Source of the DNA: Candidatus Kaiserbacteria bacterium
GTDB lineage: Bacteria > Patescibacteriota > Minisyncoccia > Phycocordibacterales > Phycocordibacteraceae
Assembly (NCBI GenBank): GCA_963813065.1
Contig: CAWEXP010000008.1
Coordinates: forward strand, 73,289-137,288
Length of the DNA stretch: 64,000 bases
Reading direction: 5' to 3'
The notes under the pieces are model-generated. The model was not told where the DNA came from. It did no database searches and saw only the letters and a program-made list of their open reading frames with translations. Each line of letters starts with the position of its first letter. Position 1 is the stretch's first letter. Position numbers and translations under genes: made by a program. Positions 20,928 through 45,832 of this stretch are shown here, one piece after another.

Positions 20928-21377
20928 ATGGAACAGCGGATTGAAAATCTCGATGAGCTCGGGCTCGCGGCGCAGGCCTTTGTTGCGCAATTGGTGCCGC
21001 GAAGAGAGGGTGCGACGCTCGTCACCCTCTCGGGCGAGCTCGGGGCGGGGAAGACCGCGTTTACCAAGGGGGTTGCGAAAGCGCTCGGTATCGAGGAAGT
21101 GGTCACCAGCCCCACGTTCGTTTTGGAAAAAATATACCAACTCAAGAATCAAAAATTTACGCGTCTCATTCATATAGATGCTTACCGTCTCGAGTCTGCC
21201 GCCGACCTCGCGTCGCTCGGTTTCGACGAAAGTATGAAGGATCCGGGGAACCTCATTTTCCTCGAATGGCCGGAACGAGTTGCTGGGGGCTTGCCGAACG
21301 CCCCGGTCGAGCTCACCTTTTCCGTCCTCCCCGACCATTCTCGCCATCTGCGGATTACAGGTACAATAGGAGGGTGA
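20928..21377 (+). CDS. tsaE: tRNA t6A biosynthesis protein TsaE (YjeE)
   Basis: P-loop LSGELGAGKTAFTKG. Probable ATG at 20928 (the track ORF starts at an upstream TTG). Confidence 0.7.
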   Translation: MEQRIENLDELGLAAQAFVAQLVPRREGATLVTLSGELGAGKTAFTKGVAKALGIEEVVTSPTFVLEKIYQLKNQKFTRLIHIDAYRLESAADLASLGFDESMKDPGNLIFLEWPERVAGGLPNAPVELTFSVLPDHSRHLRITGTIGG

Positions 21378-23689
21378 CCAAGAAACGCCTCGTCCTCTTA
21401 GACGCCCACGCGATTATCCATCGCGCGTATCACGCCTTGCCAGACTTCACCGGCCCCACAGGCGAGCCGACGGGCGCGCTCTACGGCGTCGTCGCGATGT
21501 TGCTGAAGATTATCACCGAACTCAAGCCGGATTATATTGCCGCATGCTACGACTTGCCCGGCCCCACCGTGCGCCACGAGGCCTATGCCGAGTACAAGGG
21601 CACGCGTGCGAAAACGGATGATGCACTGGTCGCTCAGCTCAATAGTTCGCGCAAAGTCTTCGAGGCGTTTTCGATTCCGGCGTATGATCGTGCAGGATTC
21701 GAGGCTGACGACTTGCTCGGCACCATCGCGCATGAGATGGAATCAAAGAAAGATATTCAAGTCATCATCGCGTCGGGCGATATGGACACGCTCCAGCTCG
21801 TTGATGACAAGCGCGTGATGGTCTATACGCTGAAGAAGGGAATTAATGACACTATTTTATACGACGAAGCAAATGTGAAAGAACGGTTTGGATTCAAGCC
21901 CGCGCTCATTCCGGATTACAAAGGCCTTCGCGGTGATCCGTCCGACAACATCAAAGGCGTCCCCGGTATTGGCGACAAGACGGCGACCGAGCTCATTGTT
22001 AATTTTGGCACCATCGAACAGCTGTATAAAAAATTGAAGAAGAGCGAGACGGTGTTGGTAGAAAAAGGCGTCAAGAAACGCGTCATCGAACTCTTGAAAG
22101 CACACGAAGAAGACGCGCTCTTCTCGAAGAGTCTTGCGACGATTCGCACCGACGCGCCGATTGCCTTCGGATTACCGAAAGACTCATGGCGCGAGGGTGT
22201 TGATGAGAAAAAAATTCTCGCAATGTGCGACGAGTTCGGATTCCGGTCGCTCAAAACGCGTATTAAAATGACGCTCGGCGGGCAGAAGCAATTTGATGAA
22301 GCTTTGGATCCGCATAGGACGAACGGGGTTGGCGAGGGCGTTCCGCCAAAGCCTTCACAAATTCCTCCTACCCGCCTCGCGCAAGCACAAGTGATGCTTT
22401 GGCTCATCTCTTCTGAATTCACTGACGCAACACTCGACGACCTGCTTGCGTTTACCAAGAAAGAAAATTTCGACGCCGCATATGCCGAGCTCGAGAAACA
22501 GCTCGGCGAGCTGGGGCGCGTGCGCGACGTGTACGAGAACATCGAGAAGCCACTCATCCCGGTTATCCGCGGGATGGAGGAGCGCGGCATTCTCGTCGAC
22601 CCCGCCGTGCTCGCGGATCTCGCGAAGAAATATCGCGCCGAGCTTGAGTCAATCGAGAAGAAAATTTATAAAGCGGCGGGGCACGAGTTCAATATCGCCT
22701 CGCCCAAACAGCTCGCGGTGGTTCTCTTCGACGAGATGCACCTCGTGCCCGAGAAGCAGAAGAAGACGCCGGGTGGCGAACGCTCGACACGCGAGAGCGA
22801 GCTGGAAAAAATAAAAGAACTGCACCCCATCGTCGCGCAGATTCTCGATTATCGCGAATTGAAAAAGTTACTCTCGACCTACATCGATAACTTGCCGCCC
22901 TTACTCGACCTTGGGCACCGCCTCCACGCACGTTTCGTCCAGACGGGTACCACCACCGGCCGCATGAGTAGCCAGGACCCGAATCTGCAGAATATTCCAC
23001 TCCATTCCGAGCGCGGCAAGGCGATTCGTCACGCATTTGTTGCAACCGATGGTTTCGAGCTTGTCTCACTCGACTATTCGCAAATCGAATTGCGTATTGC
23101 CGCCATCCTCTCAGGCGACGAGAAACTCTGCGAGATATTCCGCCACGGGCGCGACGTGCACACCGAGGTCGCATCGATGGTCTTCGGCGTTGAGGCGGAG
23201 AAGGTGGATCAAGAAATGCGCCGCCGGGCCAAGGTGATCAACTTCGGCATTCTCTACGGCATGGGCGCCAATGCTCTGCGCGCTCAACTCGGCAGCTCGA
23301 CCGCCGAGGCACATCAGTTCCTCGAAGATTATTTCCACACCTTTAAAACGCTGGCCGAATATCTCGAGACAACGCGAGGGTTCGCGCGCAAGCACGGCTA
23401 CACCGAGACCCTCTTCGGTCGCCGCCGCCAATTCTCGGAGATGAAGTCGCCTCTGCCGTATGTCCGCGCGCAAGCCGAGCGCATGGCGATCAATGCACCA
23501 ATCCAGGGTACGCAGTCAGATATCATCAAGCTCGCAATGGTGCGCGCCGACGAGATGTTGAAAGAGAAAAAGCGTCTGATGACGCACATCTTTTGCTCCA
23601 AGTGCATGACGAACTGGTCTACGAGATACAAAAAGAGCGCGTCACCAATCTCTCGGCGCGTATCAAGAAAATTATGGAATCGGTGTTGA
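21374..23689 (+). CDS. polA: DNA polymerase I (5'-3' exonuclease + polymerase domains); 3' end frameshifted, continues to 23769 in the -1 frame
   Basis: GTG start at 21374 preceded by AGGAGG. Pol A motifs RRRAKVINFGILYGMG and QGTQSDIIKLAM. After ADEMLKEKK the frame is lost. The -1 frame reads HLLLQVHDELVYE...GPNWGNLKVV-stop (canonical motif C and C-terminus). Break at the A5 run 23567-23571. Confidence 0.85.
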   Translation: MTKKRLVLLDAHAIIHRAYHALPDFTGPTGEPTGALYGVVAMLLKIITELKPDYIAACYDLPGPTVRHEAYAEYKGTRAKTDDALVAQLNSSRKVFEAFSIPAYDRAGFEADDLLGTIAHEMESKKDIQVIIASGDMDTLQLVDDKRVMVYTLKKGINDTILYDEANVKERFGFKPALIPDYKGLRGDPSDNIKGVPGIGDKTATELIVNFGTIEQLYKKLKKSETVLVEKGVKKRVIELLKAHEEDALFSKSLATIRTDAPIAFGLPKDSWREGVDEKKILAMCDEFGFRSLKTRIKMTLGGQKQFDEALDPHRTNGVGEGVPPKPSQIPPTRLAQAQVMLWLISSEFTDATLDDLLAFTKKENFDAAYAELEKQLGELGRVRDVYENIEKPLIPVIRGMEERGILVDPAVLADLAKKYRAELESIEKKIYKAAGHEFNIASPKQLAVVLFDEMHLVPEKQKKTPGGERSTRESELEKIKELHPIVAQILDYRELKKLLSTYIDNLPPLLDLGHRLHARFVQTGTTTGRMSSQDPNLQNIPLHSERGKAIRHAFVATDGFELVSLDYSQIELRIAAILSGDEKLCEIFRHGRDVHTEVASMVFGVEAEKVDQEMRRRAKVINFGILYGMGANALRAQLGSSTAEAHQFLEDYFHTFKTLAEYLETTRGFARKHGYTETLFGRRRQFSEMKSPLPYVRAQAERMAINAPIQGTQSDIIKLAMVRADEMLKEKKRLMTHIFCSKCMTNWSTRYKKSASPISRRVSRKLWNRC

Positions 23690-23765
23690 CCAAAGAAGAG
23701 GCGCGCCATGTGCCCATCCTCGCCGCAGAAAAGATTGGTCCGAATTGGGGCAATCTGAAAGTCGT

Positions 23766-24374
23766 ATGATCTACCTTTTCCACGGTTCTGACGTCGAAAA
23801 AGTGCGGCGGCAGGCGTTCGCTTTTATCGAAGCGGCACGGAAGAAGCAGCCCGACCTCGCGTATGTGCGCCTCGCGCGCGAAGAAATGACTGCGGGCGCG
23901 CTCGAGGAAGTTGCGAGCGCTGGGGGGCTCTTCGTCAGCCGCTTGCTGGTGCTCCTTGATGACCCCTTCTCGGGCGACACCAATCTCGTCGAGGAATATA
24001 TCGAACCACTCGCGAAGTCCGACAATGCGATCATTGTTCTCGCGCCGAAATTGCCGCCTGCAAAAGCAAAAAAACTTTCCGCGAAGGCGGCGAAGTCGTA
24101 CGAGTTCAATGCCGCCGCGCGCGAGGACGCGCGCGGATTTAATTCCGCACTCGTCAACGCACTCGGCGCTCGCAATCCTCAGAAACTCTGGCTCGAAGTC
24201 GTCCGCGCGCTCTCGAAGGGTGATGCACCCGAACAAGTCCACGGCCTCTTGCACTGGAAGGCCCGCACCATGTCGCGCGAACTCTCCTTGTCGCTTATTG
24301 CGCTCCTTATGGATTCTCGCCGCGCTGGCATCGACCTCGCTGAATCGCTCGAGCGCTGGGCCCTTTCTATTTAA
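23766..24374 (+). CDS. holA: DNA polymerase III delta subunit-like (HolA-like, short)
   Basis: MIYLFHGSDVEKVRRQAFAFIEAA resembles the HolA N-terminus. Start overlaps the restored polA stop (ATGA). Ends 12 bp before repeat 1. Confidence 0.45.
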   Translation: MIYLFHGSDVEKVRRQAFAFIEAARKKQPDLAYVRLAREEMTAGALEEVASAGGLFVSRLLVLLDDPFSGDTNLVEEYIEPLAKSDNAIIVLAPKLPPAKAKKLSAKAAKSYEFNAAAREDARGFNSALVNALGARNPQKLWLEVVRALSKGDAPEQVHGLLHWKARTMSRELSLSLIALLMDSRRAGIDLAESLERWALSI

Positions 24375-24386: not shown

Positions 24387-24423
24387 GTTGCACAATATCC
24401 TTTTTCCGAAGGTGGTGTGCAGG
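24387..24423 (+). repeat. Array repeat R1
   Basis: Exact 37-mer, 12 bp after the holA-like stop. Confidence 0.9.
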
Positions 24424-25041
24424 TAACTCTCGCGCTGACGGGCGCGCGAATATCGGAAGTACTGGCGCTAACCGGCGAACGTAGTGCAGAAATGTCATGG
24501 AGATGCTCGGTCAGAAACTACGCTAATCTATACAAATTTAACAATTCACTTAGAACCTCATCACGTTGACTCCGTTGAGAACACCCACCGCCTTGGCAAA
24601 GTTAATTAGCATCTAGTCGTTTCGATCAACTGAGACATTACCGGATGGGCGTCGTAATGGATCGGCCAATGAGGCTGACGCTGAGCCCGGTCTAACTCGT
24701 ATCGGCCCCGTCAACAGGGGCAAGCATTGGTCCTTTCAGCGCGGCCCGCGAGACGGTCACAGTTTGGCGTGAGATGCCGGGAGCGGACCCGCCCCATCGG
24801 TTCAGACGTAACGAGCCTTCGAGTTGCATCGGTGAAGCTATCCACACGCGGGCCTGGGCCCAATGAATACCCAAAAGTCAGAGCGCTTGCTTAGTGCGCC
24901 TAGTCGATTACATAATGGTTACTGTGTGATATTATCCACATGCGCGTCTCTGAACTTTGTGGGGAGATCGGATGAGCGTATATGTTGCCCCCAGATTACT
25001 CAGCCTTCAAGGCAAACATGAACCGAGGCCATAAGTAGAGC

Positions 25042-26265
25042 ATGTCAAACGAAGAGCGCTTAGATCAAATCCTGTCGCGTGGCGTTATCAAACAGATACT
25101 GCCGAGCGAGCAAGAGTTCAAAGAACGTATGCTCAGCGGCGCACCGCTGCGGTTTTACATCGGTGCTGATCCAACTAGTAATGCTCTCCACCTCAGTCAC
25201 GCCAAGAACTATCAAGTCTTGGAAGAATTTCGCCTACTCGGCCATGAGGTAATTGTCTTGTTCGGCGATTTCACCGCGCGTATCGGCGATCCCACAGACA
25301 GGACCGCGGCTCGATCACGTCTCACCGGCGATGAGATACGGAAAAACGTTGAGGATTGGATGAGGCAAATCCGTCCATTAATGGACTTCAGTGCCAAAGA
25401 AAACCCTCCGCGAGTTCTCTTCAATTCTGAATGGCTATCTCCTCTGACTTTCGAAGAGGTTGTGAACTTGGCATCCAACATGACAGTGCAAAGGATGCTT
25501 GAGCGAGATATGTTCGAGCGGCGCATGGAAGAGCAGAGGCCTATCTTCCTACATGAGTTCCTATATCCTCTTATGCAAGGGTACGATAGCGTCGCTATGA
25601 ATGTGGACGTTGAATTATGTGGGACTGATCAGATATTTAACGCTCTCGTTGGCCGCTCCCTTCAAAAGACGTACAACAATAAAGACAAGTTTGTAGTGGC
25701 CGTGAATCTAATGGAAAATCCGGTGACTGGAGCTCTGATGTCAAAGAGCCGAGGTACTGGAGTGTTTCTGGATGCGGAACCGTTCGATATGTACGGATCC
25801 ATAATGGCGCAACCTGACGAAATGATAGAGATAATTCTCCTCAACAATACGCGTTTGCCTAAGGACGAAATCGTCCGAGTGTTGGCCCTCGGCCCACGCG
25901 ACGCAAAAATGAGAACGGCATTTCTCGTCACCACTTTGTTTCATGGTGAGGAAGCTGCTTTCGCGGCCGAACAGAGGTTCGTTGAGGTGATACAGAAGAA
26001 AATGGCCCCCACCAGTATTCCAACCATCGGTGTTAGTAGAGAGACACCAGCTGCGTTCGAGATTGTCAGGGCGTGCCTCGACGCCAACGTATCAAATAGC
26101 GAAATAGGTCGGCTGTTCAAACAGCGCGCAATCAGGATCGATGGTGATGTCGTAGATGACCGCGACAAGGTGATCAGGCTGTCGGCCGAGGGAACGAAGG
26201 TAAATGTCGGGAAACGAAAATGGTTCAACGTCGTCGCAGCGCGTTGCGCTGACGGAGCTAGCTAG
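25042..26265 (+). CDS. tyrS: Tyrosyl-tRNA synthetase (class I, with C-terminal S4 domain) carried in cassette 1
   Basis: HIGH-type motif (ADPTSNALHLSHA), KMSKS-type motif (LMSKSRGTGV), C-terminal S4-like RLFKQRAIRIDGDVV. 407 aa. Confidence 0.8.
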   Translation: MSNEERLDQILSRGVIKQILPSEQEFKERMLSGAPLRFYIGADPTSNALHLSHAKNYQVLEEFRLLGHEVIVLFGDFTARIGDPTDRTAARSRLTGDEIRKNVEDWMRQIRPLMDFSAKENPPRVLFNSEWLSPLTFEEVVNLASNMTVQRMLERDMFERRMEEQRPIFLHEFLYPLMQGYDSVAMNVDVELCGTDQIFNALVGRSLQKTYNNKDKFVVAVNLMENPVTGALMSKSRGTGVFLDAEPFDMYGSIMAQPDEMIEIILLNNTRLPKDEIVRVLALGPRDAKMRTAFLVTTLFHGEEAAFAAEQRFVEVIQKKMAPTSIPTIGVSRETPAAFEIVRACLDANVSNSEIGRLFKQRAIRIDGDVVDDRDKVIRLSAEGTKVNVGKRKWFNVVAARCADGAS

Positions 26266-26533
26266 CGATTTCTTGAACGAAATTCTGCTCAGAACATCGT
26301 GGTTTGCTGGTCTGAACGCTCCATTGCCACTTTGGGATGTCCTATTTATTGGCGGCTCCCTAAAGTACAACATTGCACGTCCTGACTCAGATGTTGATCT
26401 GTTTCTCGTTATGCCAAGGCATATCCAGTTAGAGCGTCAGATCAACCCCGTTTACGAATTTCGATTTCGTCACCACATACAAGTCGTTTGCGTATGCATT
26501 TCTGCTGACGAAAAACAGGTGTCACACGAATAA
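26204..26533 (+). CDS. Minimal nucleotidyltransferase-fold protein (MNT-like)
   Basis: GS-x9-DxD signature (FIGGSLKYNIARPDSDVDLFLV). Overlaps the tyrS 3' end by 62 nt, so the start is uncertain. Confidence 0.45.
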   Translation: MSGNENGSTSSQRVALTELASDFLNEILLRTSWFAGLNAPLPLWDVLFIGGSLKYNIARPDSDVDLFLVMPRHIQLERQINPVYEFRFRHHIQVVCVCISADEKQVSHE

Positions 26534-26747
26534 ATGGTTGTCGTACGATCTTTGCAGATTTTCTCCGACTGTCCACGTTCTTCTATCGCGCCTGACGCAA
26601 CGAAATGGGTTGTCCAGTGACTTTTTTATACAGATGAACCAGCTATGGGGGCAACTCTTGTCTGAAGTTGGACTTACGGCAACGAAAGGCATATCATGGT
26701 CTAATCAAAACCTAGACTTGTTGCTCTTTCAATAGAGGGGCACCGCG

Positions 26748-27635
26748 ATGAACGACCACTTCGTAGCATCGTATTTTGACTTTTCTGCATTGCCGATTGA
26801 CTTTGTTGGCAAGCAGACTTTGTGGGGGGTCTCGCCGGTCTCGCCACTTCACTTGGGCTATGATGCGTTGTTTGGCATGCAGTCGCAGTTGTGCGAATTG
26901 GGTGCAAAACCTCGGACGCTGCTAGCCGACGTCCACGCGATGATGTCTCACGGGTTATCCAAGAACGACGTGGTAGTCCGTGCCAGCTACTACGATCACG
27001 TTTTGAGGGACGTGTTTTCCATAGACACAGAAGTAATTCTCGGTTCAGGGTTTGAATACACGGAAGGCTACACAGCAATTTTGTACAAAACCATGCAACA
27101 CTTTACCGTTGGTCAGTCGAAACAGGCTGCTGGAGCGACAAAGAAGAACACCCGCGACACCATCGACCGTTACGTTTATCCGCTAATGCAGTGTGTGGAC
27201 GCAGCAATTCTCGGTCCAGACATCATTGTGGCCGAGAGAAGTCAGGAAAAAATCTATAGGCTGATGAGATCGATGGCTGATGAGCCGGTTTTTGACTCAA
27301 TTTGTGCGTGGTTGTCGTCAGTACACATTGTCTATGTGGAATCAACGCACGATTTGAACGGCGAAAGGATGCAGAACAGCTCGCGGCACACCCGGATAAG
27401 CTACCACGACGAAGCTGATGTAGTGGAGGCGAAAGTGAGGAAAATGTTTGCGCCACCAGAGGCGAAACAACAAGGTGAGAAAGGGAATCCACTCTTGGTT
27501 GCACAATATCCTTTTTCCGAAGGTGGTGTGCAGGTCTTGGTTGCGGCAACGAATGGACGCGAGCCTCAATGGAGAGATATTGAAGGCCGAAAAATGGCAC
27601 TCATGCCAGAACCGCAATCTGCAGTGAGAATTTGA
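26748..27635 (+). CDS. Class I aminoacyl-tRNA synthetase-like protein (TrpRS/TyrRS family), 3' end replaced by array repeat R2
   Basis: HIGH-like region GVSPVSPLHLGYDALFG and a catalytic-core-like middle. The last ~46 codons are encoded by the repeat plus flank. Likely a truncated paralogue. Confidence 0.5.
   Translation: MNDHFVASYFDFSALPIDFVGKQTLWGVSPVSPLHLGYDALFGMQSQLCELGAKPRTLLADVHAMMSHGLSKNDVVVRASYYDHVLRDVFSIDTEVILGSGFEYTEGYTAILYKTMQHFTVGQSKQAAGATKKNTRDTIDRYVYPLMQCVDAAILGPDIIVAERSQEKIYRLMRSMADEPVFDSICAWLSSVHIVYVESTHDLNGERMQNSSRHTRISYHDEADVVEAKVRKMFAPPEAKQQGEKGNPLLVAQYPFSEGGVQVLVAATNGREPQWRDIEGRKMALMPEPQSAVRI
27498..27534 (+). repeat. Array repeat R2
   Basis: Exact 37-mer. Lies inside the 3' end of the aaRS-like ORF 26748..27635 (encodes VAQYPFSEGGVQ). 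Confidence 0.9.
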
Positions 27636-27683
27636 TGGGGAAAAGCACTTCCGCCCTAAATTTCGAGACTTTATCCGGAGGAG

Positions 27684-28712
27684 ATGATGGAAAATCGTGA
27701 TTTGGCAAGCCAAGAATTATCTGGGCTATTGTTTTCGGAGTTCGACGCGAACAAACCCATAGAGTGGAAGAATGATAGAATGTCGGCGTTTCTATTGCGA
27801 GCAGCATTTAATATTGTTCGCTGTGACGAATACCTAAGTACCATTCCCCTCACTCGGGTTCGTCCGAGCATACATCGCGAACTTTATGGCGCTCTGCGAA
27901 ACTACGCGTTGAAAGGTGACTTGGGGTTTGAAGAACATGACGAATGGAAGTTTTGGTCCATAAGTTGCTTGATCAACGACGCCCAATATCGAATCGCGGC
28001 AACGTTCGATCGATGCATAGCCCACTGGATTATTAAGTTCTTCCGTGACGTGGAGCCGTCGCATCCTCAAAAAGAAAGGGCAGCGCCCATAGAAGATCTG
28101 CTCCACTCCTGGGAGTCGGTAAAATTGATGACGCTCAAAATCTCTTTGTCGAGCATGAAACAAGTGTGCGATGCGATGCCAGACGAGAGTGGTTCGACGC
28201 TTTCTGAGTCACTCCACAAAAGCATGTTATCAATCGAAAGAATCTCTTCTGCTTTGTGGTTATCTGGAACAGATACTGCAGCAGGTGCTATTCGACATGC
28301 TCAAAATGCATACTGCAGACGCATCAGAGAGGTGGCCACATCAGGTGATTGCCTTTCGGCATACAGGCTAATCGACCAATTGTCGGTATGCAGACAGGAT
28401 GCGAAAGGGAAGATTTATGAGCGAGCGAATAACATGAACGATGAGGAATGTCTTGCTATTGTTATTGGGCGGGTAAACGATTTCAAACATCGAGCAATCG
28501 GACCAAATATTGAAGAGGAGCTGAAAGAGGAGGCGAAGCCGTACCTGCGTCACATCGAGCTTGCCATTACAATTCAGGCATTGCGCATAGTGACGCGATT
28601 TTTCAAAGCTATGTCTGCGTGTATAGAAAAAGCCTCCGAACTGGGTTTGGAGGCTTCAAAGAACAATCAAGCGCGCACTGGAGAAGTTGTACCGTTCAGT
28701 AAAGCATTGTAG
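27684..28712 (+). CDS. Hypothetical protein (cassette 2)
   Basis: 342 aa, no recognisable motif, AT-rich codon usage unlike the flanking core genes. Confidence 0.4.
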   Translation: MMENRDLASQELSGLLFSEFDANKPIEWKNDRMSAFLLRAAFNIVRCDEYLSTIPLTRVRPSIHRELYGALRNYALKGDLGFEEHDEWKFWSISCLINDAQYRIAATFDRCIAHWIIKFFRDVEPSHPQKERAAPIEDLLHSWESVKLMTLKISLSSMKQVCDAMPDESGSTLSESLHKSMLSIERISSALWLSGTDTAAGAIRHAQNAYCRRIREVATSGDCLSAYRLIDQLSVCRQDAKGKIYERANNMNDEECLAIVIGRVNDFKHRAIGPNIEEELKEEAKPYLRHIELAITIQALRIVTRFFKAMSACIEKASELGLEASKNNQARTGEVVPFSKAL

Positions 28713-29074
28713 CGCTTAAGACATTGAGGCGCCCAATGTTCCTCAAACGCCTTCGCACTTTCCTTCCCGACTCCTACGTGAAATGTCAAAATGCTGACTG
28801 CCGGTATCGCCAATGCGCGGCCTCTCAGTGCAACCGCCTTCTTAAGCAACAAGAGCTCACCTTTGGACTTTGATGTGGTGTGCTCATTCTCCAATTCGTC
28901 ATCAATTGCATCCAGCGCGCGGTCCACTTCGTCGATTGTCAGAAGTATACCGGCCGATCCTACAAACACATTAAGCAACGATGGATGCGCAAGAGCTTTC
29001 AATATAGGATGGCGAACTTCCCATTCAAACTGATCGCTGTCGCAGCATGATACCCTTGCATCTAGTGTCGTCAT
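28667..29074 (-). CDS. Hypothetical protein (only minus-strand ORF in the array)
   Basis: 135 aa, overlaps the 3' end of 27684..28712. Weak call. Confidence 0.25.
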   Translation of the reverse strand: MTTLDARVSCCDSDQFEWEVRHPILKALAHPSLLNVFVGSAGILLTIDEVDRALDAIDDELENEHTTSKSKGELLLLKKAVALRGRALAIPAVSILTFHVGVGKESAKAFEEHWAPQCLKRYNALLNGTTSPVRA

Positions 29075-29309
29075 TGCACTCTCCTGATTAGGTCAACCGA
29101 GTTCCGACGATCCAGAACCCGGCATTCGCCAACCAAGAAGCCAAGTGCTTGCACCTGAGATGTGGAGTATACGAAGTAATCAATGTAAAGGCAACTTGCC
29201 ATAGTGCTCAGTATACAGACTTAACACTATGAGCAATATTGTTCAGTATTTACTAGCCGGTCAACTACTTTCTTCTTGCTTGCTTTGAGTATGCCGCCAA
29301 CCTTGATTT

Positions 29310-29891
29310 ATGTTGTTTGATCAAGCAGGTACGCGCAAATACCTCACTGCCGATGAACGACGCGCCTTCATTCGCGCGGCAAAGCGGTTCGTTCCTCCGG
29401 TCGAAACATTCTGTCTGACCCTAGCGCTCACGGGAGGGCGAATTTCGGAGATACTCGCGCTCACGCCCGACCGCATCGACCGAGCGAGCCACACGATCAT
29501 CATTGAGAGCCTCAAAAAGCGGCGTAGCGGTGTTTTTAGAGCCGTTCCTGTGCCGGACTACCTCATAGACAAGCTGACCGCCGTTCATGGCGTTTCTAGC
29601 GGTACAGGCGACACGTCGTTACGCAGCGAGCGACTCTGGCGGTGGAGCCGAACAACGGCGTGGCACTACATAAAGACGGTGATGGTCGCTGCTGGAATTC
29701 CCCGAAACGTGTCGAAGCCAAAGGCGCTGCGCCATGGCTTCGGCGTCGCCGGTACGCAGTCAGGCGTACCACTCAATATCATCCAGCGCTGGATGGGCCA
29801 CTCTCGTCTCGAAACCACGGCGATCTATACCAACGCTGTTGGTGATGAAGAGCGCGCCTTGGCCAAGCGGATGTGGAACGGGATGCCGTAA
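29310..29891 (+). CDS. Small tyrosine recombinase / phage-integrase-family catalytic domain
   Basis: Box I Arg (LALTGGRISEILAL). Motif RHGFGVAGTQSGVPLNIIQRWMGHSRLETTAIYT (H-x-x-R ... Y nucleophile). Only 193 aa. Confidence 0.8.
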   Translation: MLFDQAGTRKYLTADERRAFIRAAKRFVPPVETFCLTLALTGGRISEILALTPDRIDRASHTIIIESLKKRRSGVFRAVPVPDYLIDKLTAVHGVSSGTGDTSLRSERLWRWSRTTAWHYIKTVMVAAGIPRNVSKPKALRHGFGVAGTQSGVPLNIIQRWMGHSRLETTAIYTNAVGDEERALAKRMWNGMP

Positions 29892-29911
29892 AGAGTCACA
29901 TAGAGAACCGC

Positions 29912-29948
29912 GTTGCACAATATCCTTTTTCCGAAGGTGGTGTGCAGG
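29912..29948 (+). repeat. Array repeat R3
   Basis: Exact 37-mer, 20 bp after the tyrosine recombinase stop. Confidence 0.9.
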
Positions 29949-30303
29949 GTATCCACTGCGACCATTATTTGCAGTGAGATTCAATTTCCAAAGCTGAAGT
30001 AGTTGTCGGCGACCCAAACATTAATTCAGTATACTGATTAAACAGAATGAAGGCATTCTGTTCAGTGTCAGCAAACTACATCCGTCTCGAAGGCGGGGCT
30101 TTGCTCCCAAAGATAGATAGGAATCTGTAGGCCGGGCACCGCGACGATTAGGGGAAAGTGCGGAAACGCAGCCGTCTTGGGACCAGAAACGACCAAAACA
30201 GCTCAATAACCGCGCCAATCCCTGGGGACAAACATCGTGGATCGATGGCGAAGCCACGGACATTGTTGCAATATTGCTCGCGGCGAATCAGTTGTAAGCT
30301 ATA

Positions 30304-35488: not shown

Positions 35489-35630
35489 TGGCGAAAAAAT
35501 ACCACCGCACTTGACCGATAGTCAAGAGACTTGCTTTGTCCTCCGCGGGGGGGGGGTTCGAACCCGCGTATGCTATCATATAAAGGTAGTCGTCAAACTT
35601 GACTACAAGTGGTAGTGTTCGGCGAGACAT

Positions 35631-35702: not shown

Positions 35703-35703
35703 C

Positions 35704-36534
35704 ATGACTGTTTCTTTTCGAGAGCGGTGTCGAGCTCTGCGCCAGCAAGGCAAGAGGATCATTGAGATTGTGAAGATAACTGACCGGGCCAAATCTTCTG
35801 TCTATACGCACATACGAGACATGCCCCTTAGTGCGGACCGGATGCGGGCAGTGCGCGTTGCATCGGGGCGGCATATTCGGCTCTATGCGCTCGCGAGAAA
35901 GGGAAAGAGTGCGCGAAAGTTTAGGACATTCAAAAAATGGACGCCCGAGCTGGTGCTCCTCGTTGCCCACTTATTGTTTGACGGCGAAATATATCGCGGC
36001 GGAATCTACAACAACCGAAACACCGCGCTTATTGAACGCGTTGAGCAATACATGCGAATACTGTACGACTATGAACCGAAACGGTATACGAATCCCCTGA
36101 CGGGTGTGCATCGGATTAGTTATCATAATGTAGAATTCGGCGCGTTTCTAAAAGCAAAATCTCGAGAGTTACTTACGAAAGTAAAACGAATGCCGCCCGA
36201 GCTAAAACGAGAATTTTTGCGAGCATTTTTCGACGACGAGGGATGCATGGACTATCGGCCCAATGAAAATCGGAGAATGGTACGCGGGTACCAAAAAGAT
36301 GTCAGAATTCTCAAGCTCGTAAAAACGCTCCTGCAAGATTTCAGAATCTCCGCTCGTATAGTGAGACCGAACGAGGTGGTGATTGTGGGAAAAGAGAATC
36401 TAAAACGATTTCAATGCGAGATCAACTTCTCTCGCGGCATTTTTATGAACGGCGATCGCCCAAATAGTCGCTGGAAAAAACATATGGAAAAACGCGAGCT
36501 GTTGCGGCTCGCCATTGCGTCATTTAAAAATTAG
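35704..36534 (+). CDS. Double-motif LAGLIDADG homing endonuclease with N-terminal HTH
   Basis: Motifs LVAHLLFDGEI and LRAFFDDEGCM. ATG starts 2 nt after the tRNA-Lys discriminator base. Confidence 0.7.
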   Translation: MTVSFRERCRALRQQGKRIIEIVKITDRAKSSVYTHIRDMPLSADRMRAVRVASGRHIRLYALARKGKSARKFRTFKKWTPELVLLVAHLLFDGEIYRGGIYNNRNTALIERVEQYMRILYDYEPKRYTNPLTGVHRISYHNVEFGAFLKAKSRELLTKVKRMPPELKREFLRAFFDDEGCMDYRPNENRRMVRGYQKDVRILKLVKTLLQDFRISARIVRPNEVVIVGKENLKRFQCEINFSRGIFMNGDRPNSRWKKHMEKRELLRLAIASFKN

Positions 36535-37476
36535 TACGTGAATGCGTCCACGGTCTTACCCGAAGCGTCGAGGAGTTTTACTTCCTCGTGTTGTGGTCGC
36601 CACATACTAGAGCTACGACCAAGATAGATGCGCCAGGTGTTGCCCTCGAAGTCGGCGTCGGTACGGTGCTCCTGTACACAGCCGTTGTAATTGAGGTACG
36701 TGGTGAGGAAGGTCTGGCACGCGCCCGAGACGGTGGTGGGCGGCGTGAGTTGTGCCGAACAGCGCGAGAGCTTGTTTACGTAATTAATGCAGGCGACATC
36801 GCGCAGATAGTCAGGATAGTTCGCGAGGAGCTCGGTGGAAGGTGTGGGGCAGGTGAGGGGGAGTGCCGGTGAAAATTTCTGATACGTGCTGAAATAGCCG
36901 ATGCACTTATTCTCGCGGAAAGAGGCGCCGATGGGCGAGGAGCCGGAGACGATAATCGCAGTGTCACCGGGTTTGAGCGTAATATCCTGTACTGCTTGGA
37001 TGGTGCCCGAGAGCGGAACCTCGGTGCCCTCAGGGATCGTCGAGGCGTTACCACTCGCGGCACTCTCGATGGTCCAACCCGCGAGATTGACGGGTGCGCT
37101 CGCGGTCGAGGAGAGGCGGAATCTCAACCGACTCTTTTGCGGGAGTGCTCCCCGCGCCCGAGACATAGCCGTCGAGCAGAACGCTCCCGCGGTAGGGCGA
37201 CGGAGTGCCGAAGGCAATACCCGCGATTGGTGAGGGGGTGCCACTCGTGCTTCCACTGGTCTCAGTGCCAGCCGAGGAGCCGTTCAGGGTGATATTGGAA
37301 TTGCCGATGGTGAAAGGGGCCTGGGGGAGTGAGAGGTAGGTGCCGCCGCCGAGAACGCCCGGCTCGGAGAGTCGCGGGCCGCTGAGCGCGAGCTGATGGT
37401 TCGGGCCACCAGTAGCCGCCCAGATAAGGAACACGAATACGAATATGCCGATGAAGAAAAAGGCATCGTGTTGCAT
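36531..37476 (-). pseudogene. Lamin-tail-domain (LTD) secreted protein, split by a frameshift
   Basis: ORF 37048..37476 (N-terminal TM + Gly/Ser/Thr-rich) and ORF 36531..37256 (LTD-like NLAGWTIE...TLKPGDTAIIV) overlap in different frames. Confidence 0.4.
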
Positions 37477-37478: not shown

Positions 37479-38620
37479 CTAAGATGATAGCAGGCGTTTG
37501 AGCTCTTCGCGCACGACCGCGGCGTCGCTCCAGGGCGTTTTCTTTCCGTGCGCTTCCATGATGTACGGGTCAGTACCTTTGCCAGAAATGAGCACTGCAT
37601 CGCCCGGGCGCGCCGCGCGGAGCGCGGCGCGTATGGCCTCGCGGCGATCCATAATGATCTCCGGCTTTTTCTCTTTCATACCCGCAGCCATTTCTTGGAT
37701 AATTTTCTCTGGTGATTCGTCGTACGGGTCTTCGTTGGTGAGGATGACGTGCGCGCACTCGTGCTCGGCAATCTGCGCCATCAGGGGGCGCTTCCAGGTG
37801 TCGCGACCGCCACCCGTGTTCCCAAGCACGCAGATCTTGCGCTCGGTGGGGAAAGCGCCATACAGCGCCGTGAGTGAGTCGGGTGTGTGCGCGTAGTCGA
37901 CGACCGCGATGAAATCTTGTCCGGCATCAATGCGTTCGACGCGTCCGCGCACGACCGGGAGTTCTGCGAGCGCTTTTGCAGATATTTTCTGGTCAACGCC
38001 AAACGCGTTCGCCATCTTTATTCCCGCAAGCGCGTTCATTGCGTTGAAGGTGCCGGCAATCGGAAGGAGAAACTCTCATCAGAATATTTGAAATGTACAC
38101 GGTGATTGTCGCTCGCAAGCTCCGCAAGCTCGCTCCGCGAGAATCCGATTGTTTCGGAAACTGTGGCATCAAGAAATTTTTTCGTCTCGGGCACGTCCTC
38201 ATTTGAAACGAGTACGCGACGGCGTTTGGGCGAGTGTTCGAGGGTCGCGACAATCGCGCGTTTCGCGGCCACATACTTATCGAAGCCGCCATGGCTCTCG
38301 AGGTGTTCGCGCTGGATGTTCGTCACGATGAGCCCGTCGAGGTCGAGGAACCAGTGGCGATAATTCAACGTACTTTCAGAGGTGACCTCGACCACTACGT
38401 GTGTGCACCCGGCGCGAAGTGCTTTGCGCAGAAACTTTTGCGCGAAGCCGCGGCCCTGGAGCGTCATTTTAAATTTATTCGGCTCCGATTCGTCCTCAAT
38501 CGCGAAGCGAATGGTTGAAAGCAGTGCCGTTTTGTATCCTTTCGCGCGCAGGATGGCGAAGAAGCATCTCGGCGGTCGTCGACTTGCCCTTGGTGCCCGT
38601 GATGCCGATAACCGTCAGCC
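37479..38620 (-). pseudogene. Mur-ligase-family protein (MurE/MurF/FolC-like) broken into 3-4 reading-frame segments
   Basis: P-loop ITGTKGKSTTAEMLL (about 38560-38610). Central domain VVVEVTSESTLNYRHWFLDLDGLIVTNIQREHLESHGG (ORF 38036..38467). C-terminal domain NAMNALAGIKMANAFGV (ORF 37479..38039). Segments are in different frames; breaks near 38565 and 38060. Confidence 0.55.
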
Positions 38621-39311
38621 GGCGAGCGGGAAGCCGTAGGCGAGCGCCATGAGGAACGCAAGCGATGCGTGATACGCCGGTCGCAGTGGCCGCACCACCG
38701 ACTCCGGCACAATCTGCTTCAAAAAGCGCACGACGACGTCGACGAGTCCGTACATACCTGAGCCGCCGGAGGAGAGTGCCGCGCGCAGTCGCGCCTCTTT
38801 GCCGGCAATGTGCTCGGCGATGCCCGAGACTGCGCGCCTCGCCTCGCGTTCGGTGTAGCCGAGCGCGACCAACGTGTCGAAGACTTCGGCATCATCGCCA
38901 CTGCCGCCGCTCTTCGTATCGCCCATTTTCTCGGCAAGCTCGACCGCGAGCTTTTCTGCCGATTTCTTGCCGAGTCCGGCGACGCGCGTCAAATAAGTAA
39001 TATCGCGACGCGCGATGGCGCGTTCGAGCCCCTCGCGCGGAGAGCGGCGGAGAATCCCGAGCGCAGTCTTGGGTCCGATGCCCGAGACCGAGAGCAATTT
39101 CTCGAAGAAGTCGCGGTCGGCGACATCGCTGAATCCGTAGAGATTCATGCCGTTCTGCGAGATCGCGAGGTGTGTCGCGAGTGTTGCCTTCACTTCCCTC
39201 GGCCAGCCCTTCGGTTGAGGCAACGAAAACTTCGATACCGAAGCCTGCGACCTCGACCACCACGCTCGCAAGACCGAGCGAGAGCACCTTTCCGCGAATC
39301 TGCCGAATCAT
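38615..39311 (-). CDS. ruvA: Holliday junction DNA helicase RuvA, internal frameshift
   Basis: N-terminus MIRQIRGKVLSLGLASVVVEVAGFGIEVFVASTEG in one frame. Remainder KATLATHLAISQNGMNLYGF...ERDFFEKLLSVSGIGPKTALGIL...GYTEREARRAV in the +1 frame. Break near 39185-39200. Confidence 0.75.
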
Positions 39312-39615: not shown

Positions 39616-39798
39616 TTGTGTGTCCCGCCTCGGCCTCGAACTTCGCCGCGTGCCGAGGGTTTTTGAACGAGTTAAATAAGACGGAGTCGAACCCCCGCAG
39701 TCGGGCACGATGCTATTGACACTTAGCATTCAACCTGCTAACATATAATCCAGATTGGGCAATTTGCTCGAACTCTGTCTGGCTATCGACAGCGATCT

Positions 39799-40185
39799 TT
39801 GGAGAAATCAATGAAAAAGCTCTTGCTCTCAGCGGGGCTGTGTGTGCTTCTGGCTCCGGTGTTCGCCTCAGCCCACGATGCCCCGAACTGGCTGGGCCAG
39901 TACAACCGTGAAGCGGTTGCGGACGCGCGAAATGCGGCCCGCAACACGCAGCCGAGTTATCCCTACTCGTCCCTCGCGCAGGAACGCCGGGCGCTCGACT
40001 ACGAGGTTGCGCACACGAACATTTCGCACTGCGCCTATCTCAATCAAGGCGAAGATTACGTGGGCAGTTCGTGCGACACCTACGAGATCGAATATCGCTA
40101 CAAGCGCATCGGCTACATCACCAAAGTGCTCGGCGACGGCGATACACGGGACTTTCTCTCGCGCTTCGGTTTCCACGACGACTAA
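39799..40185 (+). CDS. Secreted hypothetical protein
   Basis: Signal peptide MKKLLLSAGLCVLLAPVFASA. Confidence 0.45.
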   Translation: MEKSMKKLLLSAGLCVLLAPVFASAHDAPNWLGQYNREAVADARNAARNTQPSYPYSSLAQERRALDYEVAHTNISHCAYLNQGEDYVGSSCDTYEIEYRYKRIGYITKVLGDGDTRDFLSRFGFHDD

Positions 40186-40206
40186 GTGGCGAGATCATGA
40201 CATCAC

Positions 40207-40238
40207 CCGGCGGACCAATCATCCGCCGGCTTTTTTAT
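40207..40238 (+). terminator. Rho-independent terminator
   Basis: cccggcgg-accaatcat-ccgccgg followed by cttttttat. Confidence 0.45.
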
Positions 40239-40275
40239 GTAAAGTGTCTCGGTCAGTTGAACTAGTACTAGTGTG

Positions 40276-40347
40276 TGCTCTCGGTCGGAATCGAACCGAC
40301 ATTGGCCCCTTCGGAGGGGGCTATCCTATCCGTTGAATGACGAGAGC
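40276..40347 (-). tRNA. tRNA-Arg (anticodon CCG)
   Basis: Reverse complement folds as a cloverleaf: acceptor GCTCTCG/CGAGAGC, anticodon stem GCCCC/GGGGC with loop CTCCGAA, T-arm GTCGGTTCGATTCCGAC. Confidence 0.8.
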
Positions 40348-40391
40348 GAAGTGAGGCCAAACGAATTTGAGTAATCTGCTATCCTTGCGCA

Positions 40392-41065
40392 ATGGACGTT
40401 CCCGACTATCTCGAAAAGTATTATTGGTGGGCGTACGTGCGTCCCTGGGCCGTGCGGGTCTTCGAGCGCCCGTGGCTCATCAATCTTATCCTGTACGGCA
40501 ATTATACGAAACTACGCGACGTCACTGTGGCCGAGCTCGCACCGAACCTTGGCGGACGCACACTACAATCTCGGCGTGCTACGGCTCGCTCGTGCCGACG
40601 ATTGCCGAGCGCGCGCGGAGCGCCGGTGGTCACTACGAGCTCATCGACCTGTTGCCGACACAGATTGCGAATGCGCGACGCAAAGTTGGCGACAACTCTG
40701 CGGCACACATCCAGCAGATGAACGCCGTCGCACTCGATTTCCCTGACCATTCATTCGACAACGTCCTCCTCTTTTTCTTACTGCACGAACTGCCGCAGGA
40801 CTGGCGCGAGCGCGTTATGGCTGAGGCTCTGCGCGTCCTGGCGCCCGGCGGGAAAATGGTCATCACCGACTTCGGCAAGCCCGCAGGGTGGAATATCTTT
40901 TTCCGCTTCTTCTGGCTCCCCATGCTCGGCATTCTTGAACCGTTCGCGATACCGCTGTGGCGCCACGAACTCGCCGACATTCTCCCCGCGCAAATGGGCC
41001 AGCGCACCTGGCACCAACAAAAATATTTCGGCGGACTCTTTCAGAAACTGGTCGGAACAAAATAG
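40392..41065 (+). CDS. Class I SAM-dependent methyltransferase (type 11), frameshifted at an AA dinucleotide
   Basis: N-terminus in ORF 40392..40721. After GGRTLQ the continuation (I)SACYGSLVPTIAERARSAGGHYELIDLL...VLAPGGKMVITDFG is in ORF 40367..41065. Restoring one A at 40567-40568 joins them. Confidence 0.55.
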
Positions 41066-41067
41066 TG

Positions 41068-41139
41068 TGCCCCCGGTAGGAATCGAACCTACATTACAAA
41101 CTCCGCAAGCTTGCGTCCTATCCATTGAACGACGGGGGC
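41068..41139 (-). tRNA. tRNA-Arg (anticodon GCG by hand fold; verify)
   Basis: Acceptor GCCCCCG/CGGGGGC, D-arm GTTCAATGGATAGGAC, anticodon stem CAAGC/GTTTG with loop TTGCGGA, T-arm GTAGGTTCGATTCCTAC. Confidence 0.65.
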
Positions 41140-41172
41140 AATTCGGTGACTCTACACTCTTTTAATAATTTC

Positions 41173-41646
41173 TCAAAGCCCGAGCCATGCCGCGACGAGG
41201 TCGCTGATGGTGTGTTCGTGCGCGGCTTCATCGACCTGCGCGAGGAAGTAGCTGTAGACGGCGTCCGCGTCGACATTTTCGAGCGGGATGACGAGGTGCG
41301 GCGAGAGCAGGCTCTCGGTCTTGATTGAGAGTAGGGGAGGCTCGGCGCCCTCAATGTCCTCGAGGACCGAGAAGGAAGTCATGCGCGAAAAAGGGTGGAG
41401 CTCATCGCCAATCATCAGGCCTTGCTCAGTGAGCTGGAATTGGTGCACCTTGGGGTGCTTTGCCCCATGGAGCGCGAGGGCCGCGGCGGCGACGACAATC
41501 AAGAATGCGAGCAAATATTCGCTGAAGAGGAGTGCGGCTACCGCGAGCGCGACGGCCATGATACCGAGCGCCCAATACCAGTCGGCACTGCGGGGATTGT
41601 GCTCGTATTCTCGTCCTTCCCAGGTGAAAAGTGCAGAGCGGGGCAT
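41173..41646 (-). CDS. Membrane hypothetical protein
   Basis: Two N-terminal TM helices (WYWALGIMAVALAVAALLF, LLAFLIVVAAAALAL). Confidence 0.4.
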   Translation of the reverse strand: MPRSALFTWEGREYEHNPRSADWYWALGIMAVALAVAALLFSEYLLAFLIVVAAAALALHGAKHPKVHQFQLTEQGLMIGDELHPFSRMTSFSVLEDIEGAEPPLLSIKTESLLSPHLVIPLENVDADAVYSYFLAQVDEAAHEHTISDLVAAWLGL

Positions 41647-41736
41647 GGAGAAAGTATATCACCAGGTGCCGGTTGCACTCGCTCGAGCAGGGTATACTTA
41701 TACGAGCGGCACAACCGCTTTAGCATCTCTAACTAA

Positions 41737-44062: not shown

Positions 44063-44220
44063 AAGGGGGTTTGTTACTATCCAACCCCATAATCGGGCTG
44101 GTATGGATATTATATATTGTTTGGCGGTGTCTCGGGGATTCGAATTTTTTAGGCAAGGCCTTGTAAGCGTTCTTTCGTGGGTTTTCGAGCAGCCAGCCGA
44201 GGTCTCGGGGTCGCTTGGGT

Positions 44221-45832
44221 TTACTGCACTACCTGCCCATTTAGATATTTATGGTTCTTGTCTTGGGCGTCGTATTTACAACTGATTCCGCAGGAAGGCC
44301 ATTGATAATCAGAAGGTTGAACAGTAGTGAAGGTCGCTGGATCAGCTCCAATCAGCAACTGACCGCCCCAATAAACATTGTTTTTATCTTTTGCGTATGA
44401 GGTGTTTGGTATGTAAGAGAAGGTTACTATATCAACGCCGGGAATCGGAGTAACAGGTTCGGTGCTGCCGTTTGTAAGGTTACCAAGGGCATATGCCTGA
44501 TTCTTATCTTTTGCATAACCTCCTCCCATATACACAAACGTGTTCGGATCGGCTCCCGGTATCGGATAATTACCGAAATATACGTGCACCCCATCCTTTC
44601 CAAGTTCGTAATTTACACCATCGCCAGCAATATAGACGAATGTCTGAGGATCGGCACCTGGTATCACTTGTGCTCCAGGATATGACGAGGGAAAATAGAC
44701 ATATTTGTCGTCTTTTCCGTACTCACTATTGTTGCCGGCAACCCAAGTGAAGGTGGTTGGGTCGGCCCCTTGCACTATTTGCCCATTTTCGTAAACAGCA
44801 GCCTTATCTTTACCGTACCCTTCACCTAAAAAGATAAACGACGCAGGAACCGCGCCCGGGATCTCGCTGTTTTCGAAGTATACATTTTGGGCATCTTTAA
44901 AGTATGGAGTTGTTGAGCTAAGTGAAATAAAAGTTGCGGGGTCTGTCCCTGCGACAACGTTACTCCCGTAGTAAACATTATTTTTGTCTTTGCCAAATAC
45001 ATTACGTAAAGCGTCTTCGTAGAGTATTTGAAAAGTGGTAGCGTCGGCTTGTGGCATGAGAGGGGAGATGCCCCCATCGATATATATAGGGAAACCGATA
45101 TAAACGTGCTTGGCGTCTTTAGAGTAAGAGTCGAGAGGATCGACTCCAAAACTTAAACTCTCGAACGTACCAGGATCGGCACCGTCCACGCGCCCCAGCC
45201 ATTCACCGTCGACGCCTACCTCATATGCGTAGACATACTCCTTATCCTTCGCAAACCAGGAGAATTGATTTTGCTTGTCGTATACTAACGTAAAAGTGCT
45301 TGGATCTGGATTCGCGACTTGGTTATTCGGACCATCATAAACCTCGATTATTGCGCCGCCTTCATAGATGTGTATTGTCTTTAGCAAAGTCTTCAGTTCC
45401 AAATTCTTGCGCGTCAGAGGAAACGACGAAGCTTGCCGCGTCGGCCCCTAGTATCGATGAAGTTGCGTTACCGTAGTAAATTTGACCGTTTCTTTCGGAG
45501 TAGCCCGATGGATTGCCTAAGGGGAGTTCTGTAACTGGTATCCAACGGAAAGGTTTGTTTTGATCCACGACTGTGCTTGAGGTGGCTGTTGCATTAGTCG
45601 ATAGAGGCGCTTGATTCGATACCAATAGATTTATCACTCCTGGTACCCATAGTTTGTATGTAGCAATAAGACCAAGGCCGATGATGATAAGCACAAGCAG
45701 GATGATTCTAACTACTTTTATCGCCATGCTTGGACCTGTTGGTATCAGAGTTGTCGGCGGCTGTGCCGGATTTTGTTGCTCAGGTGAAGGAGGCATACGT
45801 GCTTCAACTCTAGCAGGTTTCGACCGATTCAA
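44221..45832 (-). pseudogene. Membrane-anchored DKNYY-repeat protein, frameshifted
   Basis: ORF 45362..45832 (TM anchor + first repeat) and ORF 44221..45402 (multiple YGKDKxxVY...GADPxTF repeats) overlap by 41 nt in different frames. Confidence 0.55.

Follow-up and report, generated by a model that had tools for sequence, protein, structure and literature searches.

Three-frame translation of the window, the 64-kb stretch of DNA analysed here, together with Pfam matches split across adjacent frames shows that eight small indels break six genes within approximately 22 kb (23,567-45,371). These are polA, ruvA, a MurE-type ligase, a methyltransferase, an LTD protein and a DKNYY protein, all of them listed in the initial annotation and all found to be broken where it had placed the damage. 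The genes, their lesions and the associated features are as follows.

21374-23769, plus strand: polA (DNA polymerase I), split between two frames
23567-23572, plus strand: polA lesion, 1-nt deletion in GAG AAAAA GCG (A5 for A6, or G for GG)
24387-46500, no strand: strain-variable segment with three insertions relative to syntenic relatives (24.4-35.6, 39.7-41.1 and 41.7-46.5 kb)
35547-35556, no strand: intergenic G10 run, G9 in contig L001 of the independent Logan assembly; a further indel discrepancy in the same stretch
36531-37476, minus strand: LTD-domain membrane protein, split between two frames
37116-37125, minus strand: LTD lesion, 1-nt insertion (GAGATTCCGC); with one base taken out it reads VEIRLSS and is colinear with six relatives
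37479-38755, minus strand: MurE-type Mur ligase, in four segments that switch back and forth between two frames
38061-38070, minus strand: MurE lesion 3, 1-nt deletion (TCTCCTTCCG); repair gives FSLPIAGTFN, matching relatives
38555-38567, minus strand: MurE lesion 2, 1-nt insertion (ATGCTTCTTCGCC); repair gives AEMLFAILRA, matching relatives
38625-38632, minus strand: MurE lesion 1, 1-nt deletion (TTCCCGCT); repair gives YGFPARRLTVIG, matching relatives
38759-39311, minus strand: ruvA, split between two frames
39188-39198, minus strand: ruvA lesion, 1-nt insertion (GGGAAGTGAAG); 46 nt in place of 15 codons in relatives
40392-41065, plus strand: UbiE/Methyltransf_11-type SAM methyltransferase, broken in the window and intact (224 aa) in Logan contig L002
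40567-40568, plus strand: methyltransferase lesion, G absent between two A's (window CAATC, Logan CAGATC)
44221-45796, minus strand: DKNYY-repeat protein, split between two frames
45362-45371, minus strand: DKNYY lesion, +1 or -2 nt in ACACATCTATG

Structure of the broken genes

In polA one frame matches positions 3-328 of the DNA_pol_A model and the adjacent frame positions 322-380, which agrees with a break at the A5 run at 23567-23571. Motif C (QVHDEL) thereby falls outside the reading frame, and insertion of a single base restores EKKASDDAHLLLQVHDEL, colinear with relatives. The ruvA break, expected near 39185-39200, was likewise located, with RuvA_N 1-32 in one frame and HHH_5 and RuvA_C in another. 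The codon at the position of the relatives' ruvA stop is TCA (38759-38761), so that ruvA reads in frame into murE; this lost stop codon is probably also a consensus error. Three-frame translation and alignment placed the LTD break inside the interval 37050-37250 that had been suggested for it, and the DKNYY break lies within 45362-45402 as proposed. For the Mur ligase the breaks near 38060 and 38565 hold, but the description of two breaks and three to four frames does not, there being three breaks and only two frames. The first of them throws the P-loop out of frame and is directly followed by a TGA stop.

All eight sites are indels of 1-2 nt, and single-base repair yields in each case a full-length ORF that is colinear with its orthologues and 60-78 % identical to them, the orthologues being uninterrupted in dozens of relatives. 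Alignment showed this colinearity for the repaired PolA, LTD, RuvA and DKNYY proteins individually, and the repaired MurE, at 426 aa compared with 423-429 aa in relatives, aligns end to end. Neither internal stops in the correct frames nor larger deletions were found in the six genes, only tiny indels. At 228 columns that are otherwise invariant the repaired MurE shows 8 changes private to it, the relatives having 0-17; its amino-acid conservation is normal, which indicates that the gene is under no relaxed selection, and the three lesions fall inside 570 nt of an essential murE that is otherwise undamaged.

In database searches, uninterrupted, full-length proteins made up 120 of the 120 MurE matches listed and 120 of the 120 PolA matches listed (the window's own broken product aside). 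A near-identical intact copy was found in the protein database for neither, the best among the matches listed reaching 78 % for PolA and 74 % for MurE (own fragments aside), and no close MurE relative was seen in scans of GTDB genomes (at most 73 % identity) or JGI metagenomes (at most 56 %). The frameshifted 771-aa PolA product is the sole member of its 90 % cluster. An uninterrupted DKNYY homologue of 529 aa (P0254) is 70 % identical. A composite query joining segments from five of the lesion sites yielded two DKNYY-type matches and nothing else, and is uninformative for the other genes, RuvA and LTD included; many of the fragments and neighbours looked up as exact proteins were absent, owing to start-codon choice or missing Logan coverage.

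The whole window was compared by blastx with ORFs from 52 related loci. Frame-switch junctions backed by 22-49 relatives occurred only at polA, LTD, MurE and ruvA, with none in 15.8-23.5 kb or 46.5-50.2 kb, and Pfam scans found no split domains in the other large ORFs. The other peptidoglycan and recombination genes of the window, PBP1, RuvB and RuvC, are intact. Three further candidates were rejected: YebC, whose approximately 190 aa are normal for the clade; the overlapping stop-to-stop ORFs at 46.8-50.2 kb, which are separate intact genes; and the recombinase at 59214-60104, a 5'-truncated paralogue and not a frameshift.

Comparison with an independent assembly

As independent data we utilized the Logan assembly of run ERR11630400, which comes from the same population as the window; a search for literature on this run found none. 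Its contigs cover approximately 15.3 kb of the window, over which they show one synonymous SNP and two indels, each of the indels falling within the lesion-bearing stretch. No difference from the window occurs anywhere in contigs L057, L075, L004 and L076, nor in the 1,361 aligned nt of L074. Contig L002 corresponds to window positions 39644-41704 plus one extra G, which restores the 224-aa methyltransferase; the frameshift is thus absent from an independent assembly whose DNA is otherwise identical. This is the only lesion directly verified, one of the eight having been checked against independent data. The position of the break had been given correctly, but the missing base is G rather than A, the addition of an A giving the same amino acid (Gln). 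Logan and the window are separated by the synonymous SNP and so do not represent exactly one clone; true polymorphism between strains could account for the difference at the methyltransferase.

The start of Logan contig L076 coincides exactly with the DKNYY lesion, at position 45371. Neither the MurE fragments nor the S20 protein of the 37.0-39.6 kb interval were found in Logan, so the Logan assembly fails at this hotspot too; this non-assembly is the only hint on read depth and an indirect one.

The cas1 and cas2 genes are intact, as had been stated (TIGR00287, 222 bits), and over the two genes the Logan contig matches the window without any difference. Beside them six CRISPR-type repeats, spanning 24387-34110, separate five gene-bearing "spacers" of 1.3-3.1 kb, and Logan contigs across repeats 3-5 independently confirm part of this array. 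Nowhere is the contig less reliable than in the interval 23.6-45.4 kb, which holds the cas1-cas2 array, and detailed statements about the array should therefore be based on 29920-37037, which the independent assembly confirms.

Lesion type and clustering

Frame arithmetic, with the verified methyltransferase site as its calibration, gives four 1-nt deletions, three 1-nt insertions and, for DKNYY, +1 or -2. At least two of the frameshifts had been assigned to short A-runs; this is not borne out, as polA alone breaks at a run of more than 3 nt and the methyltransferase lost the G in CAGATC. In the homopolymer census the 66 runs of at least 6 nt coincide with none of the eight detected lesions, and three such runs sit inside polA itself, upstream of its only detected break. 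A homopolymer-deletion model was rejected on the strength of the frame arithmetic, the Logan comparison and the census together, and the classic homopolymer signature of nanopore, 454 or IonTorrent errors is absent. Because the lesions are not associated with homopolymers, the artefact would be of the random-indel, low-depth type. A model based on GATC methylation motifs was also rejected: a GATC contains the methyltransferase lesion that was verified and might contain the LTD lesion, while the other six contexts share no motif.

The lesions are clustered beyond chance. Assuming eight uniformly placed sites, the probability of a span of at most 21.8 kb in 64 kb is 0.003, and that of the hotspot at 37.1-39.2 kb, where five lesions fall in 2.07 kb, is 0.00026. 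All eight lie within the strain-variable segment or at most 0.8 kb from it. As to sequencing platform, depth profile and the cause of the clustering, we infer that the 137.9-kb metagenome-assembled contig may be a consensus from few noisy reads whose polishing was incomplete, a profile suggested by small, roughly balanced indels at non-homopolymer positions with few or no substitutions. Over strain-specific insertions only this strain's reads would support the segment, and effective depth, and hence consensus quality, would drop. Low depth alone would not be a full account of the clustering, because Logan is fragmented outside the cluster too (L057 ends at 21490, and no lesion occurs in 15.8-23.5 kb).

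Interpretation and alternative explanations

Taken together, the eight frame breaks, and with them the G10 run, are very probably consensus errors of the assembly and not mutations of the organism, and the organism itself most likely has PolA, RuvA, MurE, LTD, methyltransferase and DKNYY proteins that are all intact. Their expected lengths would be about 798 aa for PolA, about 184 aa for RuvA, 425-426 aa for MurE, about 315 aa for LTD, 224 aa for the methyltransferase and about 525-530 aa for DKNYY. Small-indel frameshifts are described as a failure of long-read genome and metagenome assemblies (bioRxiv 10.1101/2021.08.23.457338; PMC9262707). Our verdict is a local failure of consensus quality rather than biology. 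The earlier proposal of indel errors stands on this point, supported by the intact Logan methyltransferase, the colinear repairs and the lack of decay in MurE; its homopolymer-deletion signature does not.

A mixed case, in which the polA, ruvA, murE and LTD lesions are errors and those of the methyltransferase, DKNYY or both are real segregating indel polymorphisms, is unlikely. It draws on the methyltransferase allele that is intact in Logan and broken in the contig and on the synonymous SNP, which implies some true strain variation, as well as on both genes lying in insertions absent from relatives. The Logan contig that ends exactly at the DKNYY lesion is what a branch in the read graph would produce; however, a k-mer graph branch can equally stem from recurrent read errors or a coverage gap. 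Further, the methyltransferase site is not a phase-varying type of repeat tract, and the five-lesion hotspot is left unexplained.

Very recent genuine pseudogenisation would make polA, ruvA, murE and three accessory genes null, in a lineage either dying or complemented by host or sister cells, and we regard it as quite improbable. Bacteria of the candidate phyla radiation (CPR), to which the source of this contig belongs, are reduced, host-dependent organisms, a lifestyle in keeping with such losses; the lesions are present in the deposited sequence, the database holds the species' PolA only as the frameshifted version, and the independent check reached one of eight sites. Against this, the same population yields an unbroken methyltransferase when assembled independently, MurE has no substitution decay, tiny indels are the sole kind of damage, nonsense mutations and larger deletions being absent, and three independent lesions strike one 1.3-kb essential gene when there are none in 42 kb of flanks. 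PBP1, RuvB and RuvC remain intact in the window, and orthologues are intact in all relatives (among the PolA and MurE matches listed, and in the GTDB scan). Loss of these genes from the lineage, as had been suggested, finds no support in view of the Logan methyltransferase, the normal substitution load of MurE and the lack of nonsense mutations, large deletions or other accompanying decay.

It is highly improbable that the indels are real and arise from a local mutational process, such as error-prone break repair around an active Cas1-Cas2 locus that has integrated kilobase-sized DNA in the form of the six-repeat array; were this so, the flanking core genes of the strain would be in the course of destruction, or the population would segregate broken and intact alleles. 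Restoration of the frame in vivo by programmed ribosomal frameshifting or transcriptional slippage, for which the A5 run at the polA lesion might speak, is effectively refuted by orthologues that are single uninterrupted ORFs in dozens of relatives, the other seven sites having no slippery heptamer or long A/T tract, corrections of both +1 and -1 being required, three of them in one gene, and a stop codon following immediately on the first MurE shift.

The significance of the lesions is mainly one of quality control. Read at face value, the sequence describes a CPR bacterium without functional PolA, RuvA or MurE and might lead to mistaken claims that genes were lost; the frame breaks would lower completeness estimates, and the six genes yield at least 14 fragments in protein databases, where fragments are already present. 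The genes should be repaired before conclusions are drawn from them.

Comparison with known systems

The lesions most resemble those of long-read or poorly polished assemblies as these are described for proovframe (10.1101/2021.08.23.457338) and by Sereika et al. 2022 (PMC9262707), in that conserved genes are split by 1-2-nt indels, the repaired ORFs match orthologues, substitutions are rare and the one testable lesion is absent from an independent assembly. They differ from what those accounts describe in not being concentrated at homopolymers, in that insertions are about as common as deletions, and in their confinement to one 22-kb stretch rather than the whole contig.

In the pseudogenes of reductive evolution, as in Mycobacterium leprae and recent endosymbionts, frameshifts are accompanied by stops, deletions and accelerated amino-acid change genome-wide. 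The likeness lies in several housekeeping genes being interrupted by frameshifts, whereas here there are tiny indels only, conservation is normal and the lesions are local. Programmed frameshifts, such as the +1 shift of prfB and the -1 shift of dnaX, have sites conserved among orthologues and defined slippery motifs. They share with the present genes the placing of two halves of one protein in different frames, but the lesions here have neither conservation among orthologues nor slippery motifs.

Breaks in the conserved genes and their repair

The breakage of six genes in the window is, as biology, no real feature. Stop-to-stop ORF maps, three-frame translations and Pfam scans showed all six genes named in the initial annotation to be broken, namely polA, ruvA, a Mur ligase that is a MurE orthologue, a methyltransferase (40392-41065), an LTD protein and a DKNYY protein, with the count raised to eight small frame-breaking indels (lesions), three of them in murE; in addition, ruvA has lost its stop codon and one G run disagrees in length with an independent assembly. 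Shift directions were derived from frame arithmetic calibrated on the methyltransferase lesion, for which the answer is known, and from orthologue alignment lengths.

Lesions and their direction in the window
polA, 23567-23571: 1-nt deletion
LTD, 37116-37125: 1-nt insertion
MurE-3, ~38061-38070: 1-nt deletion
MurE-2, ~38555-38567: 1-nt insertion
MurE-1, ~38625-38632: 1-nt deletion
ruvA: 1-nt insertion
Methyltransferase, between 40567 and 40568: 1-nt deletion
DKNYY, 45362-45371: +1 or -2

In polA, one frame matches positions 3-328 of the family-A polymerase model and the next frame positions 322-380, with the switch at GAG-AAAAA-GCG (23567-23571), and adding one base gives ...EMLKEKKASDDAHLLLQVHDEL..., colinear with relatives. 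The murE gene lies in four pieces alternating between two frames, and a TGA stop directly after the first shift means that the P-loop is lost. In ruvA, RuvA_N positions 1-32 are found in one frame and HHH_5 and RuvA_C in another, and the codon that is a stop in every relative reads TCA (38759-38761, minus strand; GGC GGC TCA GGT ATG versus GGC GGC TGA CCGT ATG at the relative's locus L031), so that ruvA reads in frame into murE; the probable cause is a wrongly called base in this low-quality stretch.

The repaired 426-aa MurE can be aligned over its full length with relatives of 423-429 aa at 71-74 % identity and has 8 private differences at 228 columns invariant among six relatives, which themselves have 0-17. 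Repaired LTD, RuvA, PolA and DKNYY proteins are likewise colinear with their orthologues, and alignment of the repaired genes to orthologues revealed no decay beyond the frameshifts. Three independent frameshifts in one essential and otherwise undamaged 1.3-kb gene are unlike real pseudogenes.

Comparison with an independent assembly

Exact-protein look-ups identified seven short Logan contigs (run ERR11630400) from the same population.

Logan contigs compared with the window
L057, 19554-21490: no difference
L075, 29920-32732: no difference
L074, 32713-34073: no difference within these coordinates; final 4 nt divergent
L001, 34082-37037: one synonymous SNP at 36570; G9 versus G10 in the window at 35547-35556
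L002, 39644-41704: one extra G
L004, 41684-43227: no difference
L076, 45371-48056: no difference

L002 has its extra G precisely at the site of the methyltransferase lesion (CAGATC, against CAATC in the window) and thereby encodes a 224-aa methyltransferase, a single protein in the Logan gene calls with matches to Ubie_methyltran and Methyltransf_11. This lesion is therefore absent from an independent assembly, a comparison that the initial annotation had called for, and since L002 restores the gene, the repaired peptide proposed there was right. What the window lacks is a G, outside any repetitive sequence, rather than an A in an A-run. L076 starts exactly at the DKNYY lesion, as expected where a read graph branches or fails; with ~14 contig ends, we estimate the probability that any lies within 10 nt of the eight sites by chance at P≈0.03. 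The hotspot at 37.0-39.6 kb was not recovered from Logan, exact-protein look-ups for the MurE fragments and the S20 gene matching nothing but the NCBI/ENA contig. The G10 run (G9 in L001) is intergenic, between cas1 and tRNA-Lys.

We consider it unlikely that the methyltransferase lesion, the DKNYY lesion or both are real accessory-gene polymorphisms and the core-gene lesions alone errors, a mixed case favoured by the synonymous SNP between Logan and the window and by the end of L076 at the DKNYY site. Genuine pseudogenisation of the broken genes is very unlikely, given that the independent assembly has an intact methyltransferase, that decay is absent, that only tiny indels occur and that the damage is local. 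Programmed frameshifting is excluded, since the orthologues are uninterrupted and slippery motifs are absent. The intact Logan methyltransferase, the lack of decay and the locality bear out the original conclusion of sequencing or assembly indel errors.

Type and clustering of the errors

The homopolymer-deletion signature proposed for these errors was not borne out, and the homopolymer census and the indel balance do not fit homopolymer compression. None of the 66 homopolymers of at least 6 nt in the window coincides with a detected lesion, including three (A6, A7, A6) inside polA upstream of its sole detected break; polA has the only lesion at a run >3 nt, insertions are about as frequent as deletions, and substitutions are scarce, with the ruvA stop codon as the sole candidate. 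Such an indel profile suggests that the consensus rests on few, noisy reads and was incompletely polished. Long-read (meta)genome assemblies are documented to suffer from frameshifts caused by small indels (10.1101/2021.08.23.457338; PMC9262707).

When the whole window was compared by blastx with the ORFs of 52 related loci fetched around MurE, frame-switch junctions backed by 22-49 relatives were found at polA, LTD, MurE and ruvA only, with none in 15.8-23.5 kb (RuvC, YebC, RuvB, PilB, TsaE and most of PolA) or in 46.5-50.2 kb, and in Pfam scans the other large ORFs had complete domains. The clustering of the lesions is real, simulation of eight uniformly placed sites giving P = 0.003 for a span of <=21.8 kb and P = 0.00026 for five within 2.07 kb.

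Relatives share the order RuvC-YebC-RuvB-PilB-TsaE-PolA-(HolA-like)-LTD-MurE-RuvA-S20, followed by RuvX and PilM/N genes, relative to which the window carries three insertions (24.4-35.6, 39.7-41.1 and 41.7-46.5 kb). None of the eight lesions lies more than 0.8 kb outside this variable segment, and the five-lesion hotspot is the conserved block between two insertions. Where structurally differing strains co-exist, the assembled path would be backed by the reads of this strain alone, and depth, and hence polishing quality, may drop in the strain-variable segment. Low depth alone is an incomplete account of the clustering because the Logan contigs are short outside the cluster too.

Genomic setting

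The window is gene-dense (~55 % G+C), derives from a deposited NCBI/ENA contig of 137,901 bp that the GTDB species representatives do not include, and is of patescibacterial origin (CPR; Kaiserbacteria/Paceibacteria-like), the closest PolA relatives (75-78 % identity) being labelled Candidatus Kaiserbacteria, Paceibacterota or Minisyncoccia. Near rnpA-yidC and dnaA-dnaN lies a conjugation/T4SS-like gene set (2961-9759), which also holds several membrane ORFs without assigned function.

Mobility-related genes
3648-5480: TraG/VirB4-type P-loop ATPase, in the T4SS-like set
7025-8572: T4SS-pilin/TrbC-like protein, in the T4SS-like set
51358-52722, minus strand: large serine recombinase, paralogue 1
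59214-60104, minus strand: large serine recombinase, paralogue 2

Paralogue 2 covers only residues 172-449 of paralogue 1 (64 % identity), without the catalytic resolvase domain, and is therefore a 5'-truncated remnant rather than a frameshift. The stretch that the two recombinases flank, with a Panacea-domain (SocA-like) antitoxin and tRNA genes, is possibly an integrated element. Elsewhere, a LAGLIDADG_3 homing-endonuclease-like ORF (276 aa, 35631-36534) begins at the base directly after tRNA-Lys(UUU), and a homologue (63 % identity) holds the same position beside the LTD gene at the relative's locus L021.

A repeat array beside cas1-cas2

The insertion at 24.4-34.1 kb is bounded and split by six same-orientation copies of a sharply delimited, hairpin-forming 37-nt CRISPR-type repeat, GTTGCACAATATCCTTTTTCCGAAGGTGGTGTGCAGG, one copy having one mismatch.

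Array and adjacent genes
24387-34110: array, repeat copies starting at 24387, 27498, 29912, 31289, 32705 and 34074
34143-34439, minus strand: cas2
34436-35488, minus strand: cas1

The last copy and cas2-cas1 are 32 nt apart, and effector cas genes were not seen anywhere in the window. The five "spacers" (3074, 2377, 1340, 1379 and 1332 nt) have a lower G+C (0.49-0.52). They carry an entire TyrRS and a TyrRS-like gene truncated by a repeat, together with genes for a small tyrosine recombinase, a SAM methyltransferase and a DKNYY protein; among their further ORFs, which lack an assigned function, one is 5'-truncated at a repeat. The block (24387-34110) is missing in syntenic relatives. As L075 independently spans repeat3-cassette3-repeat4-cassette4-repeat5 at 100 % identity, the arrangement does not stem from an error of this assembler. 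L074 matches cassette 5 without a difference through the final base (34073), then reads TCGC (positions 1362-1365) against GTTG of the repeat (34074-34077). Either the same fragment may also sit in a second context in the sample, as donor sequence or an alternative array state, or this end may be a graph tip. A literature search found no description of such a kilobase-spacer array. The array resembles the outcome of kilobase fragments being integrated, with duplication of the repeat, in the manner of Cas1-Cas2.
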